Sequence record: KY703222 | Length of the DNA stretch: 64,000 nucleotides | Strand: one strand, 5' to 3' | Source: Escherichia phage phiC120 | Part shown: piece by piece, positions 32,275 to 55,213 of the stretch | How positions within the stretch are numbered: the first letter of the stretch is position 1 | Layout: each line of letters begins with the position of its first letter | The notes under the pieces: generated by a model | The model's database searches: none | Seen by the model: only the letters and a program-made list of their open reading frames with translations | What the model was told of the DNA's origin: nothing | Made by a program: the position numbers and the translations under genes

Positions 32275-32471
32275 TTCTTCACCTTTTTGTTAATCAAACG
32301 TTTACGGTATACAACTTTTTCTTTTGCTTTAAACTTTGACCGAGCTGTCTCGGCTTTAGTCCATAGTAATCCAACTTCTTTAGGTTGTAAACCGATTTTT
32401 TGAGCAATTTCTACGAATGAAAATCCCGCCTCATGTAATGTATAAACTTCAACTTCAGCTCTCATAATCAA
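32271..32471 (-). CDS. hypothetical small basic protein with HTH-like segment (T4 24.3-like position)
   Basis: 66 aa; helix-turn-helix-like GFSFVEIAQKIGLQPKEV and Lys-rich tail. Confidence 0.6.
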   Translation of the reverse strand: MIMRAEVEVYTLHEAGFSFVEIAQKIGLQPKEVGLLWTKAETARSKFKAKEKVVYRKRLINKKVKK

Positions 32472-32546
32472 TCCAGTGTTATTTGGTTTGTGCCATTATA
32501 TACATCAATCTCAAGTTGTGTTTTATATGCTTTAAAAACGAAGAAA

Positions 32547-32560
32547 GGGGCCGAAGCCCC
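32547..32560 (-). terminator. hairpin GGGGC-TTCG-GCCCC (minus strand) after hoc
   Basis: 5-bp GC stem with UUCG loop just downstream of hoc stop on the minus strand. Confidence 0.55.
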
Positions 32561-32566
32561 TTACGA

Positions 32567-36481: not shown

Positions 36482-36490
36482 TTAAAAAAA

Positions 36491-36513
36491 GGCCCGACCT
36501 TTTTGGAAGGGCC
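36491..36513. terminator. hairpin GGCCC-N13-GGGCC between convergent uvsW.1 and uvsY.-2
   Basis: GC stem flanked by A-runs on both sides in a convergent intergenic region. Confidence 0.45.
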
Positions 36514-36540
36514 AAAAACCATAGGCAAAAAAAGGTAACA

Positions 36541-36708
36541 CTATAGTAAAAGTTGGGTTTCGTTCAATTGCTCTTCTGAACTTTCTGAAACCGGCAATTG
36601 TTGTACATAATTATAACAAGGACCAGGATGTGCTGGACCTTTGTCTGTTTCAACAACCAATGCAGAATCGATTGGAGTTTTACAGACAACACAAATCTTA
36701 TCTGACAT
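36541..36708 (-). CDS. uvsY.-2: small Cys-containing protein (T4 uvsY.-2-like), 55 aa
   Basis: Below ORF-track threshold; translated manually (MSDKICVVCKTPIDS...); AGGAGG SD and late promoter upstream. Confidence 0.65.
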   Translation of the reverse strand: MSDKICVVCKTPIDSALVVETDKGPAHPGPCYNYVQQLPVSESSEEQLNETQLLL

Positions 36709-36727
36709 GATTGCCTCCTAAGTTGAA

Positions 36728-36735
36728 ATTACATA
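36728..36735 (-). promoter_or_regulatory. late promoter TATAAATA (minus strand) for uvsY.-2
   Basis: Plus-strand TATTTATA about 20 nt upstream of the uvsY.-2 start. Confidence 0.55.
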
Positions 36736-36740
36736 TCTAT

Positions 36741-42498: not shown

Positions 42499-42703
42499 GC
42501 CTGAATCTTCAACTAAATCTCCGGAAGCAAAACAAGTTCAGTCAATAGAGAAAGGACGTGCTTCTGAATCTAAACAACAGCAACCGGTAGCGACGATTAG
42601 TAACACAAATAATGTCGTCAAAAAGAATACCGTAGTCCAGAATATGACCCCTGTAACAAGTACAACGGCTCCTGGAATTTTCCATGCCACCGGTGTTAAT
42701 TAA
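42474..42703 (+). other. 29: A9 homopolymer plus 73-codon +1-frame continuation (putative gp29 C-terminus)
   Basis: Reading with one A fewer gives ...AKKTQTTVKPESST...GIFHATGVN, ending 8 nt before gene 48 ATG. Confidence 0.7.
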
Positions 42704-42711
42704 GGATTATT

Positions 42712-47256: not shown

Positions 47257-47296
47257 AGTGTTTTCCTTTTAGTAATAATTTATATTTATGCCAAAA

Positions 47297-47312
47297 AGAG
47301 CCCGAAGGCTCT
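47297..47312 (-). terminator. hairpin AGAGCC-TTCG-GGCTCT (minus strand) upstream of alt
   Basis: 6-bp stem with UUCG loop on the minus strand followed by a T-run, between the 62-aa ORF and alt. Confidence 0.55.
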
Positions 47313-47500
47313 TAATCCACAATCGGGAGCAAAGTACGATAAACTTCAAAATTAGGGCCTTTTTCGTACCCATTAACGTTATCTACGAAAACCCGATACG
47401 AATTTTCATTAGGAAAATCTAATATAATCTGAGAGCAAGAGGTGGAAACATCTCCACCATCCTTCTTAGCTACAATAACTGTTTCTAAATAAGCTTTCAT
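47312..47500 (-). CDS. hypothetical protein (62 aa) between DNA ligase and alt
   Basis: Start at MKAYLE in a TAATG overlap with the ligase stop. Confidence 0.5.
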   Translation of the reverse strand: MKAYLETVIVAKKDGGDVSTSCSQIILDFPNENSYRVFVDNVNGYEKGPNFEVYRTLLPIVD

Positions 47501-51090: not shown

Positions 51091-51456
51091 TTAGATATCG
51101 AATTCATTAAGAACTACATCAAAGATTGCTTCGAGATGTTCAGGTTTAGCTCGGTTACTCAGGATATGACGAATCCAAGTTTTAACCAAAAGTTTACGAT
51201 TGACACCGTTCCAGCAAGGATGAGTACCTAAATCACGCTGACGGAAATCATCATCTAATGCAATTTTGAAGTTGGAACCTTCCATCGTGATTGAAACCGT
51301 GATGCCATTTTCAAATCGCATATAAACGTAATTAGGAGTCATGCACTGTTCGATTTCACAAACTGTACCGTTTTTGTGTTTCCATAAGCAAATAACTTCA
51401 GAAGAACCAGCGATACCGTTAGAAACATATTTACGTTCGAAGTTGATGTAGTTCAT
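51091..51456 (-). CDS. hypothetical protein (T4 30.7-like)
   Basis: 121 aa ORF with its own early-type promoter. Confidence 0.6.
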   Translation of the reverse strand: MNYINFERKYVSNGIAGSSEVICLWKHKNGTVCEIEQCMTPNYVYMRFENGITVSITMEGSNFKIALDDDFRQRDLGTHPCWNGVNRKLLVKTWIRHILSNRAKPEHLEAIFDVVLNEFDI

Positions 51457-51497
51457 TTTATTCTCCAGATGTTTAAGTTGTTTGTTGGTACAGGTCT

Positions 51498-51526
51498 ATA
51501 ATAACATAACCTGTACCAAAGTAAAC
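51498..51526 (-). promoter_or_regulatory. early promoter GTTTACT-N16-TATTAT inside a 10-bp palindrome
   Basis: Minus-strand GTTTACT and TATTAT; perfect inverted repeat TTGGTACAGG/CCTGTACCAA (51485-51494, 51510-51519) brackets the -10. Confidence 0.5.
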
Positions 51527-51530
51527 TGTT

Positions 51531-51899
51531 TTATGCAACTTTAATCCAATTGTCTAAATTTAAAACACCTTTGGCTTTCATTTTTTCGATCAGGTTATCT
51601 GCTGTAATGCGTCCATTTTGATACCATGTAACATCTTCAGAGTAACCAGTTTCTTCGTCAACATATGTTTCTGAACGAATTTTACCTGTAATAATAGTTT
51701 TTAATTCGTATGTGTCACCTGTGAAAAAGTTTGCTAACACAATTTTCCAAGAGAAATCATTTGAAGGACCTTCAGGAGTTGTACAACCTACGATCTCAAA
51801 TTGCTCTTTGTATAACATCCACTGGAATTCTTTAATTTCGATAGCTTTATAACCGTCGTGGTCTTTACATTTGATGTATGAGTTCAGATTGATTTTCAT
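51531..51899 (-). CDS. hypothetical protein (T4 30.8-like)
   Basis: 122 aa ORF with GGAG SD and early-type promoter. Confidence 0.6.
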   Translation of the reverse strand: MKINLNSYIKCKDHDGYKAIEIKEFQWMLYKEQFEIVGCTTPEGPSNDFSWKIVLANFFTGDTYELKTIITGKIRSETYVDEETGYSEDVTWYQNGRITADNLIEKMKAKGVLNLDNWIKVA

Positions 51900-51941: not shown

Positions 51942-51970
51942 ATAGTAACACATCCTACAGGAGAGTAAAC
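51942..51970 (-). promoter_or_regulatory. early promoter GTTTACT-N16-TACTAT
   Basis: Minus-strand GTTTACT, TGTGT, TACTAT about 45 nt upstream of the 30.8-like ORF. Confidence 0.5.
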
Positions 51971-52006
51971 ATCTTTTTAAACTTTTTCTGCCCTAAACGC
52001 ACAAAA

Positions 52007-52024
52007 GGGAGACCGAAGTCTCCC
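52007..52024 (-). terminator. hairpin GGGAGAC-TTCG-GTCTCCC (minus strand) after the 30.9-like ORF
   Basis: Exact reverse complement of the 9840 and 29187 hairpins, 5 nt downstream of the small ORF stop. Confidence 0.7.
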
Positions 52025-52029
52025 TAAAA

Positions 52030-52206
52030 TTATGCAACAACCTTTCCAAAACGAGAAGCATCATCTCGAAGAACTGCACGTGCTCTGCGCATGATCTTCT
52101 CAACTGTTTGATTAATACGAGAGTTCGACCCACGCTTGTATCCAGCGCGTTTAGAATCACCGACTTTCTTTTCAACTGCTTTCTTTGCTTTAGTTTGTTT
52201 TGCCAT
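52030..52206 (-). CDS. small basic protein (58 aa; T4 30.9-like position)
   Basis: Below track threshold; translated manually (MAKQTKAKKAVEKKVGDSKRAGYKRG...); Lys/Arg-rich; terminated by a strong hairpin. Confidence 0.5.
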   Translation of the reverse strand: MAKQTKAKKAVEKKVGDSKRAGYKRGSNSRINQTVEKIMRRARAVLRDDASRFGKVVA

Positions 52207-52578
52207 TATAAATTCTCTTTAAATGAAAATGCAGGACTTATTGACATTGCCTGCTCAAGCCCTCAAGGGGAACATAGGTTTTTGGATATTTAACGACCAG
52301 GATAACCATAAACCCGTCATCATACCTTATAGCTCTTATCTGTTGCACACCGTTAGCTTAAAGGTTCCGGGTTCGATTTCTCGAGGATAAGATATATACT
52401 GATGGATATATAGGCCTTGAGGCGTACTCCCGATTAGCCATCACCTCGGGGTAGCATGCACTTACCGCTATAAGAACAACATTCAAGAGGTACACCGTAA
52501 AATTGTCGGGGCGGTACTTCTAAAACATACCGATTCGCAAATCGATAATCAGACAATTCGACGGCTCCTCGATTTAAC

Positions 52579-52827
52579 TTACTTCAGGGTAATAACAAAA
52601 TGACGAACTGCTTTACGAGCTGCTGAAGCCAGAGGCTTAGCATATTTCAATTCATCTTTCTGAGCCAGTACATCACGAAGATCGGCCTGTGCTGGATTCA
52701 GATGTTTGAAATACTGTAAGATTTCCAGTGCTTCGGCTTCAACATCAATTGACGCACCGTAGTTTTCGTGACCATTATTCCATGCATGGCGTTGCAGTTC
52801 AAGAGCGTGTTGTAATTGTTTAATCAT
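52579..52827 (-). CDS. rIII: rIII lysis inhibition accessory protein
   Basis: 82 aa; N-terminus MIKQLQHALELQR matches recalled T4 RIII. Confidence 0.85.
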   Translation of the reverse strand: MIKQLQHALELQRHAWNNGHENYGASIDVEAEALEILQYFKHLNPAQADLRDVLAQKDELKYAKPLASAARKAVRHFVITLK

Positions 52828-52943: not shown

Positions 52944-52951
52944 TATTTATA
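52944..52951 (-). promoter_or_regulatory. late promoter TATAAATA (minus strand) upstream of rIII
   Basis: Plus-strand TATTTATA immediately downstream of gene 31 stop. Confidence 0.5.
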
Positions 52952-53284
52952 TCACTTATAAAGACACGGAATAGCTTTATAGTGGCATGTTACGAATTTC
53001 TGTTTAATTTCTTTAGGTTGTTTAAGACCTAAAGCCACAAATGGATGTGGAACATTTCGAATTTGTCCAACTGGTAGTGGAGTCAAATCACCGGCTTCAA
53101 CAAAACCTTCAGGAACATCAGGACCTACAGAATGAACTACACATAGTTCAGGAACTTCACCTTGAACACGTTTACCAATCACAAGTCCTGATTCGGTAAC
53201 TTCTTCATCACCTGCTTGAGCGGGTTCAGAAACCAGAATGACATATTCACCAACAGCACGAATTGGGAGTTGTACTTCAGACAT
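52952..53284 (-). CDS. 31: head assembly co-chaperonin gp31 (GroES-like)
   Basis: 110 aa; near-identical to recalled T4 gp31. Confidence 0.92.
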
Positions 53285-53341: not shown

Positions 53342-53650
53342 TTACATAAGAAGCAAACGTTCGACCGGAGTACCATCAACCGAAATTACTTTATCAAGGC
53401 GGAAAGAACGCCACTGACCTAACTCGGTATCGAATGCTCGAACTGATTCACGAGGTTCAGAACGAACTTCTGTTGATGGGTTACTATTTTCATATTTGAC
53501 TTCAAGTTCATCGCGCGAAGCAAACATAGTGCGTACATCACCGTTAGCCTTTTCAAATACAACACAATGAACGCCTACAGACAGAATAGTTTTAATACGT
53601 TCACGAAGAACCATAGTTTCTTGTTCAGTTAAAATCATATTATTCACCAC
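53342..53650 (-). CDS. hypothetical protein (T4 31.1-like)
   Basis: 102 aa ORF between cd and gene 31. Confidence 0.6.
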   Translation of the reverse strand: MVNNMILTEQETMVLRERIKTILSVGVHCVVFEKANGDVRTMFASRDELEVKYENSNPSTEVRSEPRESVRAFDTELGQWRSFRLDKVISVDGTPVERLLLM

Positions 53651-54221
53651 AAAAGTTTCGGATTTGTTCCCAATTCAGAGAACGAAGATTATTACGAGAG
53701 TACTGAATTACTTCAATACCAGCTTGTTTTAGAATATCTGCCCAATTTTCAGGAGATCGGTCGTATAATTCTGCGTATACGACCTTTTTAATACCTGACT
53801 GCGTAATAGCTTTAGTACAATCAGGACATGGAGAAAGCGTCGTATATAACGTAGCACCTTCAATAGAATTACCTTTACGAGCTGCAAACAAAATTGCATT
53901 CAATTCTGCATGGATTTCATTATTAGCAGACCATGCACTATGAGCAGCTCGATGTTCTTTGGCTAAAACAAAATTATCTACTCGTCCAAATGCTGTAGTG
54001 CCTTCTTTATGTCCAGCAACGATGACTGGGATTGGTTTATTCTTCAACCAACCATTTTCAGATGCATGTTCGCAACAGTTAACGCCACCTGCAGGTGAAC
54101 CGTTATATCCAGTAGAGATAATGCGTCCATCTTTTTCAATGACGGCACCAACTTTCCATGAACAACATTTTGATTCTTGAGAAATCAGATATGCAATCTG
54201 AAGGTATGTGCTAGCTTTCAT
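53640..54221 (-). CDS. cd: dCMP deaminase Cd
   Basis: 193 aa; cytidine/dCMP deaminase zinc motifs HAE and PCPDC. Confidence 0.93.
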   Translation of the reverse strand: MKASTYLQIAYLISQESKCCSWKVGAVIEKDGRIISTGYNGSPAGGVNCCEHASENGWLKNKPIPVIVAGHKEGTTAFGRVDNFVLAKEHRAAHSAWSANNEIHAELNAILFAARKGNSIEGATLYTTLSPCPDCTKAITQSGIKKVVYAELYDRSPENWADILKQAGIEVIQYSRNNLRSLNWEQIRNFCGE

Positions 54222-55213
54222 TATTGAACCTTATTAATATAAGTTAACAGCTCTTTAGTTTGTTCCCAACTGATGCACGCATCGGTAACGGAAACGCCAT
54301 AGGACATATTATCAGAAATTTTTTGATTTCCTTCATGTAGGAACGATTCTATCATAATTCCTTTGACCAAATCATTAGCTGCTAAATTTTTACCAATACC
54401 AATTTGATTGCTATAATGCCCATCAGCGTTTGCATGGCTACAGTCAACCATTACATAATGATTCAGACCTACTGCCCTTGCTTTGTTAGAAGCTTCTTGA
54501 ATATCAGAAGAATGATAGTTCGGGCCGTTGGTCCCGCCACGCAATACGATATGCGTATTCTGATTACCTTCAGCTTCAACAATGCCTACAGTACCATCGA
54601 CGTCCATACCCATATACCGATGAGGCCAGGCGGCACTATACATCGCGTCTGTAGCTACTTTAATAGAACCATTGGTTGCGTTCTTGAAGCCTACGCACAT
54701 CGGTAGACCTGAAGCAATTTCACGATGTGTCTGACTTTCAGTCGTACGGGCGCCAATAGCAACCCATGAGAAAATACCAGAAAGATACTTAATCGTGAAT
54801 GGGTCTAATACTTCAGTTGCTAATGGAAGTCCCATACGTAGAAGTTTACGACACAATGTTCGTGCAACTATAAGACCGTGGTTCATATCAAAACTTCCGT
54901 CAAGATATGGATCATTTACAAGACCTTTCCAACCTACGGTAGTTCGAGGCTTTTCAAAATAAACGCGCATCACTAACAGAACATTAGGAAGACGAGTTTG
55001 AAGTTCAGCCAGACGTTTGCCGTATTCAACAGCAGCAATAGGGTCATGAATTGAACAAGGACCTACAACAATAAGTTTGCGTGGGTCTTCACCGTTCATA
55101 ATCGAATTAACTTGTTCGCGATGAGAAGCCACTTGTGATGCGTAAGCTTCCGACAAAGGAATAATCTCAGCCAGTTCTTTTGGAGAAATAAGTTTTCCGA
55201 CGACAGGTAACAT
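54221..55213 (-). CDS. 3-deoxy-D-arabino-heptulosonate 7-phosphate (DAHP) synthase, class I AroG-like
   Basis: 330 aa; AroG/F/H hallmarks GPCSIHDP, MRVYFEKPRTTVGWKGL, GARTTESQTHRE, VGFKN, ILRGG, SHAN, ESFLHEGNQ, TDACISW; AAGGA SD. Confidence 0.88.
   Translation of the reverse strand: MLPVVGKLISPKELAEIIPLSEAYASQVASHREQVNSIMNGEDPRKLIVVGPCSIHDPIAAVEYGKRLAELQTRLPNVLLVMRVYFEKPRTTVGWKGLVNDPYLDGSFDMNHGLIVARTLCRKLLRMGLPLATEVLDPFTIKYLSGIFSWVAIGARTTESQTHREIASGLPMCVGFKNATNGSIKVATDAMYSAAWPHRYMGMDVDGTVGIVEAEGNQNTHIVLRGGTNGPNYHSSDIQEASNKARAVGLNHYVMVDCSHANADGHYSNQIGIGKNLAANDLVKGIMIESFLHEGNQKISDNMSYGVSVTDACISWEQTKELLTYINKVQ

Follow-up and report, generated by a model that had tools for sequence, protein, structure and literature searches.

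The locus between rIII and 30.9

The subject of this analysis is the spacer between the genes rIII and 30.9 of Escherichia phage phiC120 (sequence record KY703222), and especially a segment at its centre, which is referred to as segment B. The window, which means the whole stretch of DNA that was analysed, comprises 64,000 nucleotides and belongs to a genome of the Mosigvirus type (RB69-like, T4-type), with Shigella phage ESh27 as the best match (98-99% identity). All genes of this stretch are located on the minus strand, and those around the spacer are read in the order cd, gene 31, rIII, 30.9 and 30.8. The spacer itself has 372 bases and contains three RNA-structure segments, which were delimited by modular conservation and follow each other from 5' to 3' as C, B and A (Table 1). 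Judged from its sequence, the gap is very probably a transcribed rIII-30.9 spacer, the centre of which (52321-52479) would belong to a previously uncatalogued family of folded RNAs of about 150 nucleotides in the Straboviridae.

When all open reading frames (ORFs) of at least 70 amino acids are masked and 30.9, with its 58 amino acids, is accounted for, this gap is the largest uncovered stretch within the window. An original prediction, made from the letters of the DNA, had found no convincing ORF here, which was borne out by our analysis, as only short ORFs are present. The plus-strand ORF of 57 amino acids ending at 52396 that had been described was measured wrongly and is in fact one of 55 amino acids (52223-52390). 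The minus-strand ORFs are indeed short, but the size limit of 27 amino acids given for them does not hold, as ORFs of 36-45 amino acids appear once GTG and TTG starts are allowed. The hairpins that had been pointed out are all found in the sequence, namely GCAGG (52231-52235) with CCTGC (52250-52254), CGGTA with TACCG, and CGATT-CGCA-AATCG.

Table 1. Genes, signals and RNA-structure elements at the rIII-30.9 locus, in the direction of reading of the minus strand
Feature	Position	Strand	Remarks
cd	53640-54221	-	
gene 31	52952-53284	-	
Late box TATAAATA	52944-52951	-	upstream of rIII; consensus match
Sigma-70-like site	52875-52847	-	upstream of rIII; from sigma-70 scan
rIII	52579-52827	-	
Intercistronic spacer rIII/30.9	52207-52578	-	segments C, B, A
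Segment C, by modular conservation	52479-52575	-	
Segment C, long stem	52487-52570	-	GAGG/CCUC, GCCGU/ACGGU, GAAUUGUC/GACAAUUU; encloses hairpin CGAUU-UGCG-AAUCG
Segment B, by modular conservation	52333-52467	-	
Segment B, structured RNA module	52321-52479	-	full-length covariance-model match; core 52326-52474; about 150 nt
P0, 5' strand (CUUAUAGC)	52467-52474	-	pairs with 52326-52333; closes module
P0, 3' strand (GCUAUAAG)	52326-52333	-	pairs with 52467-52474
Arm I	52413-52466	-	P0b, asymmetric internal loop, P1/P1a, terminal loop L1
P0b	52464-52466 with 52413-52415	-	C-G 26 / U.G 3 / U-A 1
Internal loop of arm I	AAGUGCAU 52456-52463 opposite CUCAAG 52416-52421	-	asymmetric, conserved; bends arm I
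P1/P1a	52446-52455 with 52422-52433	-	ten pairs, 9 with compensatory change
L1 kissing sequence UGAUGG	52438-52443	-	complementary to CCAUCA of L2
Arm II (P2 hairpin)	52393-52412	-	52406-52412 with 52393-52399; seven pairs, 4 compensatory
L2 kissing sequence CCAUCA	52400-52405	-	P2 loop
Arm III	52334-52392	-	Pd enclosing three-way junction of P3, P4 and strand GCAACA
Pd	52386-52392 with 52334-52340	-	compensatory change in 5 of 7 pairs
P3 hairpin	52373-52384	-	GAAA loop; 4 of 4 pairs with compensatory change
P4	52368-52372 with 52347-52352	-	15-nt loop 52353-52367; 3 of 5 pairs with compensatory change
Strand GCAACA	52341-52346	-	five of six bases invariant
Short ORFs, GTG/TTG starts allowed	52358-52495, 52434-52556, 52238-52348	-	36-45 amino acids
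Segment A	52207-52326	-	three hairpins, then AAAGAG and the 30.9 start codon
Segment A, by modular conservation	52207-52327	-	
Hairpin A1	about 52285-52326	-	segment A
Hairpin CCCCUUGAGGG	52260-52270	-	segment A
Hairpin GCAGG...CCUGC, then AUUUUCAUUU	52231-52254	-	segment A
AAAGAG	52215-52220	-	before the 30.9 start codon
30.9	52030-52206	-	58 amino acids; start codon 52204-52206
Terminator hairpin GGGAGAC-UUCG-GUCUCCC and U-tract	52001-52024 (hairpin 52007-52024)	-	30.9-30.8 spacer
Early-promoter-like GTTTAC, N17, TACTAT	51965-51970 and 51942-51947	-	for 30.8; PeSL type
30.8	51531-51899	-	

The fold of segment B

Segment B is found by our covariance model R1 with 184 bits (E ~1e-40) and is present as a single copy in the window. 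Its predicted fold consists of a terminal helix (P0), a perfect four-way junction without linkers and three arms, of which arms I and II are joined by a loop-loop kiss of 6 bp. P0 differs between phages in both sequence and length, and its inner pairs covary, one being A-U in 17 copies, G-C in 12 and U-A in 1, the other C-G in 27 and G-C in 3. The closing U.G pair of P2 is kept in 24 of 30 copies. The P4 loop and the strand next to it hardly vary. Each of the 30 has the stretch GCUAA..GUG.GCAAC unchanged or almost unchanged, and invariant columns of the core are found at 25 of 61 unpaired positions compared with 14 of 76 paired ones. A check by eye for extra tertiary pairs among the 5' junction strand, the P4 loop and the internal loop revealed none with covariation support. 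In the copy of phage EcS1 (locus L027, 958-975) the P4 loop is 7 nt longer and reads CAGCCUAUGGCCAGC, which repeats the GGCCUAU of the boundary between arms I and II and may represent a small internal duplication.

Evidence for an RNA structure and for its strand

The structure was assessed by comparison of copies. In an alignment of 25 distinct copies of segment B made with MAFFT (A1), the 44 pairs including the pseudoknot are paired in 99.4% of cases and 20 of them show changes on both sides, whereas controls, in which the partners were slid by 1-3 columns, gave 29-41% paired and 1-4 compensatory pairs. The nested helices were also found independently by RNAalifold. A covariance model was built from the MAFFT alignment, and 30 distinct copies, the diverged ones among them, were then aligned to it (A4); here, the 38 nested pairs are paired in 99.2% of cases, with compensatory changes in 28.

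The pseudoknot is not part of the model. Nevertheless, L1 and L2 can form six contiguous Watson-Crick pairs in each of the 11 distinct loop combinations, with six kissing sequences in use (CGAUGG, UGAUGG, CUAUGG, CAAUGA, UGUAUU and UGCAUU), and only 8-24 out of 2000 loop shuffles equalled each kiss. In the MAFFT alignment three of its six columns covary and 100% of the cells are paired. In addition, the compared copies of segment B contain 44 G.U cells as opposed to 0 A.C cells, which identifies the minus strand as the RNA strand, because the opposite strand would hold 44 mismatches. Taken from these comparisons, segment B in all likelihood represents a conserved, strand-specific and pseudoknotted fold with an invariant unpaired core. 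The original prediction had offered a small RNA or a regulatory element among its explanations, and this was right in kind, with the RNA being strongly supported by covariation, by the strand-specific G.U pairs and by a conservation above that of the flanking genes.

Distribution of segment B and its two genomic contexts

About 990 phage records match DNA of the gap. For segment B by itself the number is 406, and every locus that was inspected has it between rIII and 30.9. These 406 records come from phages of Escherichia, Shigella, Klebsiella, Enterobacter, Yersinia, Citrobacter, Serratia, Erwinia, Edwardsiella, Kosakonia and others. The copies of Jiaodavirus, Moonvirus and Kanagawavirus are 92-95% identical to segment B, compared with 69-70% for the DNA of rIII, 31 and 30.8 in the same phages. 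More diverged copies were found in Muldoon (85%), EcL8g (84%), Cronus (80%) and EcS1 (74%) and also in fHe-Yen9-01. Among 50 rIII loci, 20 contain segment B. In this main clade, the module is located on the same strand as 30.9 and upstream of it, 32-173 nt before its start.

The gap of T4 is unannotated, has 244 bp and is equivalent to segments C and A, with segment B being absent. In the RB69-like phage Shf125875, segment C is followed by a different insert of about 50 nt and then by segment A, again without segment B. This insert of the RB69-like phages (L003, about 930-980) is located at the junction corresponding to 52327/52479 of the window, is unrelated to segment B and can form a simple hairpin of 9 bp. 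The position acts like a slot in which RNA cassettes alternate and which holds either the module, the insert of about 50 nt or, as in T4, nothing.

Diverged full-length copies with 70-86 bits exist at a second locus in the Yersinia phage JC221, in Slopekvirus (mtp5, K41P2 and phiEap-3) and in two IMG/VR contigs. They are located on the 3' side of uvsY/uvsY.-2; the only gene after them is the convergent uvsW.1, and no gene of the same strand lies downstream. Every helix and the kiss are kept in these copies, with different sequences. Lw1, a related phage, does not possess the module. A CATAAATA box is found 11-12 nt upstream of P0 in JC221 and K41P2; it is changed to AGTAAATA in another copy and absent from the rIII clade. 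As a possible promoter of the module's own, this box is a weak lead.

The gap between uvsY.-2 and uvsW.1 forms a non-coding island of 400-700 nt in JC221, Slopekvirus and Pseudotevenvirus (L157, 1200-1935; L160, 970-1197). On the 3' side of the second-locus module it contains about 350 nt of further conserved non-coding sequence, which is also present in RB43, RB16 and KP15, all lacking the module. Each genome has two to three copies of this sequence, which ends at a strong bidirectional terminator.

Bacterial copies were not found. The invariant 3' motif, searched for as an exact string in 185,579 species genomes, had 0 matches, a degenerate motif gave 80 loci of which 0 were confirmed by the covariance model, and blastn against 5,426 E. 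coli genomes yielded no match. A scan of IMG/VR with the 5' motif gave mostly chance matches, none of which was confirmed.

Flanking segments and transcription context

Segment C directly follows the stop codon of rIII and is also present in T4 (locus L006, about 735-820). Its 25 predicted pairs include 6 compensatory ones and are paired in 99% of the cells among 20 distinct sequences of low divergence, T4 included. For the hairpins of segment A the comparative support is weak, with 3 of 25 predicted pairs covarying; segment A and 30.9 together are 96% identical to T4. A hairpin of the form (G)UACCC-N3-5-GGGGCUUG (52260-52270 in the window; also L007, L024, L157, L160 and L027) recurs in almost all of the phages, 10-80 nt away from the module. 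It is usually placed downstream of the module, upstream of it in EcS1 and EcL8g, and it is found in T4 without the module.

Neither a promoter-like site in a sigma-70 scan nor a terminator-like site in a terminator scan was detected inside the gap, and the hairpins downstream of the module lack a proper U-tract. The module would be transcribed by read-through from the rIII promoters, i.e. from the TATAAATA box and the sigma-70-like site, both early and late, as suggested by consensus motifs only, and the rIII-30.9 unit would end at the hairpin and U-tract at 52001-52024. Expression of rIII and 30.9 was the subject of a study by Driukas and Nivinskas from 2003, as cited in PMC9409239.

The spacer between 30.9 and 30.8 (51942-52024, minus strand) reads as a promoter-terminator cassette of the PeSL type, as described in PMC4122927, and a copy of this cassette with 75-78% similarity is found in the 30.8-30.7 spacer (51452-51526). 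An ORF of 330 amino acids adjoins cd (54221-55213, minus strand); in the closest relative it is labelled 2-keto-3-deoxy-D-arabino-heptulosonate-7-phosphate synthase, a metabolic gene without a T4 counterpart at this position. Other stretches of the window that are free of ORFs of at least 70 amino acids have 213-292 bp (32275-32566, 36482-36740, 42499-42711 and 47257-47499).

Possible roles of the module

Segment B very probably represents a new RNA family of a familiar kind, that is, a folded non-coding RNA domain, and it is carried by many T4-like phages of Enterobacterales. As a tentative mechanism, which we prefer to the others but which falls short of an even chance, the module might act as an autonomous, dispensable accessory RNA, its binding partner being a protein or a small ligand that is conserved among hosts or among phages. 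The helices would then serve as a scaffold on which the unpaired nucleotides that never vary, about 25 in number, are arranged into a surface or pocket for recognition, and the module would not be a switch dedicated to gene 30.9. It is conceivable, though rather unlikely, that segment B constitutes a new functional class, be it a decoy or 'sponge' for a host factor, a defence signal or a nucleic acid, or a ligand-sensing or catalytic RNA. With the same reservation, it might in this case be a mobile accessory cassette across at least a dozen genera, which was missed for decades because T4 itself lacks it.

Several points weigh against our interpretation. Folded by itself, the sequence has an ordinary energy (z = -0.3 on the minus strand, with -1.2 also obtained), which was excluded from the evidence; because it is unremarkable, the case rests on the comparison between copies. 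Most of these copies are close relatives, with an effective sequence number of 1.23, so that about ten diverged copies, the source of many of the compensatory counts, have to carry the argument. The shuffle statistics are inflated by relatedness among the sequences, and alignment A4 was fitted to the model. The GNRA loop on P3 is not universal: some copies have UAAA instead, and in JC221 and Slopekvirus the loop is longer. For the module RNA, sequence context is the basis on which transcription, ends and stability are predicted. Finally, the module is mostly located upstream of 30.9, and a cis role is possible there.

Such a role would be that of a riboswitch or attenuator in the leader of 30.9, in which the ligand state of an aptamer gates the passage of transcription or translation through the hairpins at 52231-52270 into the gene. 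We consider this unlikely, even though the module of the main clade always precedes 30.9 on the same strand, and a hairpin (GCAGG..CCUGC followed by AUUUUCAUUU) stands before the 30.9 ribosome-binding site. The aptamer-like domain that a riboswitch should possess is indeed seen and backed by covariation (99% of cells paired, 20-28 compensatory pairs and an invariant unpaired core), and a variable P1-like closing helix combined with many invariant junction nucleotides is also found in riboswitch aptamers. A consistent position in the 5' untranslated region is however not seen, as the copies of JC221 and Slopekvirus have no downstream gene on the same strand, with only the convergent uvsW.1 behind them. 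Moreover, 30.9 is expressed from this spacer in T4 and the RB69-like phages too, where the module is missing. As to an expression platform, which would be a mutually exclusive terminator or sequestering helix, the terminator scan was blank, the downstream hairpins are also present in T4, which lacks the module, and no alternative pairing that competes with P0 was seen by eye, no formal search having been made. That the module is autonomous, dispensable and present in two contexts argues against a switch dedicated to 30.9.

The intercistronic or 3'-end position in both genomic contexts would also suit an element of RNA processing or stability, either a new self-cleaver with the rIII-30.9 transcript as its target or a knot that stops 3' exonucleases or the scanning of RNase E, with the result that the two cistrons would not decay alike. 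The compact pseudoknotted fold with invariant core nucleotides is reminiscent of small ribozymes and exonuclease-resistant RNAs, and its perfect four-way junction resembles that of the natural hairpin ribozyme. This explanation is doubtful to a considerable degree, as no ribozyme model of Rfam matches at E <= 10, no cleavage-site signature was identified, and about 150 nt with about 25 invariant unpaired positions exceed the needs of most self-cleavers.

By analogy, the module might be an element of processive antitermination or polymerase binding like HK022 put or Bacillus EAR, with the nascent RNA carrying the polymerase through hairpins and terminators. An operon-internal position upstream of several hairpins resembles that of EAR, the module has the sense orientation at both loci, and the host RNA polymerase, being highly conserved across Enterobacterales, would explain the invariant nucleotides. 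The Rfam models of put and EAR do not match, however, the argument is purely analogical, and transcription reading through the module behind uvsY would enter uvsW.1 in antisense, all of which makes this improbable.

There is very little in favour of an element acting at the level of DNA, such as a replication origin, a recombination hotspot or homing site, or a PeSL shuffling cassette. Gain and loss of the module take place at a single exact position, which is empty in T4 and filled by a different insert in the RB69-like phages, the module occurs at two loci, and PeSL cassettes are found next door (PMC4122927). The pairing signal is however confined to one strand, as seen from the G.U and A.C cells, and this disfavours the origin-like DNA element that had originally been proposed as well. 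By eye, neither a TTTACW-N17-TAYWAT promoter nor a MotA box was seen, nor a MotA-box/-10 pair as in T4-type origins (oriF/oriG), the sigma-70 scan was blank inside the gap, and a long-range kiss together with a conserved unpaired core is not expected for a DNA site.

A decayed or very small protein-coding gene, to which the original prediction had also pointed, is hardly credible: a 27-codon AUG frame lies inside the module and automatic annotators have placed coding sequences (CDS) on the region (45 amino acids in ESh27, 67 in NHEP29, 58 in CLB_P2 and 44 in COW86c), but these vary in frame and extent between near-identical phages and are mutually frameshifted, no relative has an intact gene across the interval, the curated records of T4, RB69-like phages and JS98 are empty there, the longest stop-free runs across the copies of segment B have 26-52 codons with no frame open in all of them, and the substitutions are compensatory pairs in helices instead of changes at third codon positions. 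ORFs of the gap gave no match to PHROGs or Pfam, while 30.9 as a positive control matched phrog_1427. Hypothetical-protein CDS over the module are annotated in ON528737 (URY13936.1), PQ511150 (XUK82601.1), OL770107 (UNI73250.1), PP597396 (COW86c_228) and MN508817 (JC221_170); they are in different frames and once on the opposite strand, and are probably spurious.

Significance

T4-like phages are among the best-studied viruses and are in wide use as therapeutic phages against E. coli, Klebsiella, Shigella, Yersinia and Enterobacter. Nevertheless, hundreds of deposited genomes have no annotation for the RNA described here or wrongly show hypothetical proteins in its place. A length of about 150 nt, a four-way junction, a covarying kiss and about 25 fully invariant unpaired nucleotides, with others almost invariant, are hallmarks of ligand-binding, protein-binding or catalytic RNAs, and segment B is kept at 92-95% identity across genera, yet dispensable. 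Its function is directly testable, because natural pairs of carrier and non-carrier phages differ almost only by the cassette. If it were a sensor, a ribozyme or an anti-defence decoy, this would add a new RNA class to phage biology; at minimum, annotation can be corrected and a new RNA family be added to Rfam.

Comparison with known RNAs and cassettes

The search for a known RNA family by covariance-model scanning, which had been proposed as a check, came out empty, as two scans gave no Rfam match in the gap at E <= 10. With Rfam 15 at gathering score, no family was found in the whole window, and a scan of the JC221 locus was also blank. None of the class models for self-cleaving ribozymes (hammerhead, twister, twister-sister, hairpin, pistol, hatchet and HDV-like) matches segment B. 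The literature searched contains no description of the segment B RNA, the 2003 study of rIII/30.9 expression lying outside the literature covered.

HK022 put, Bacillus EAR and phi29 pRNA are folded RNAs, phage-borne or operon-internal, that work by binding a protein machine, and the kissing loops of phi29 pRNA have complementary, covarying sequences. Segment B differs from all three in having neither sequence nor model similarity to them. It is established that packaging of the T4 type requires no RNA.

A resemblance to tRNA is limited to a T-loop-like motif and to the four arms of the module. The motif GGTTCGATT that had been noted is present, at 52370-52378, but it is located on the strand opposite to the RNA, where it is the complement of P3/P4, and it is not a remnant of a tRNA arm; we regard it as a coincidence and reject a tRNA or tRNA-like remnant. 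In contrast to the contact between the D- and T-arm positions in tRNA, the kiss of the module joins arms I and II. ARAGORN found 0 tRNA or tmRNA genes in the window.

The stable species 1 and 2 RNAs of T4 (rnaC/rnaD) are likewise small non-coding RNAs of T4-type phages, with 120-140 nt. They adjoin the tRNA cluster and not the rIII-30.9 interval, and T4 is without segment B. A relation was rejected, as R1 with filters off gave at best 3.3 bits (E 0.31) in the region 70.6-71.4 kb of T4.

PeSL cassettes of T4-like phages consist of a simple stem-loop and an early promoter of the form TTTACW N17 TAYWAT (T4/PST type; PMC2839356, PMC4122927). Like segment B, they are short and non-coding, occur where T4-like genomes are plastic, and are gained or lost between close relatives. 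Segment B, however, is five times larger, has no such promoter and shows a covarying multi-helix fold with a pseudoknot; a stem-loop followed directly by an early promoter was not found in 52207-52578, either by eye or in the sigma-70 scan.

Among the nearest known counterparts are also the orphan motif families in Rfam, such as those discovered through comparative genomics by Weinberg et al. (2010/2017; PMC2864571, PMC5737381), together with riboswitch aptamers that contain kissing loops (purine and lysine). Segment B differs from these in lacking an Rfam match at E <= 10 and in not being consistently placed in a 5' untranslated region. What it shares with them is a multi-helix domain with a variable closing helix, covarying helices, invariant junction nucleotides, a loop-loop contact and a GNRA loop.

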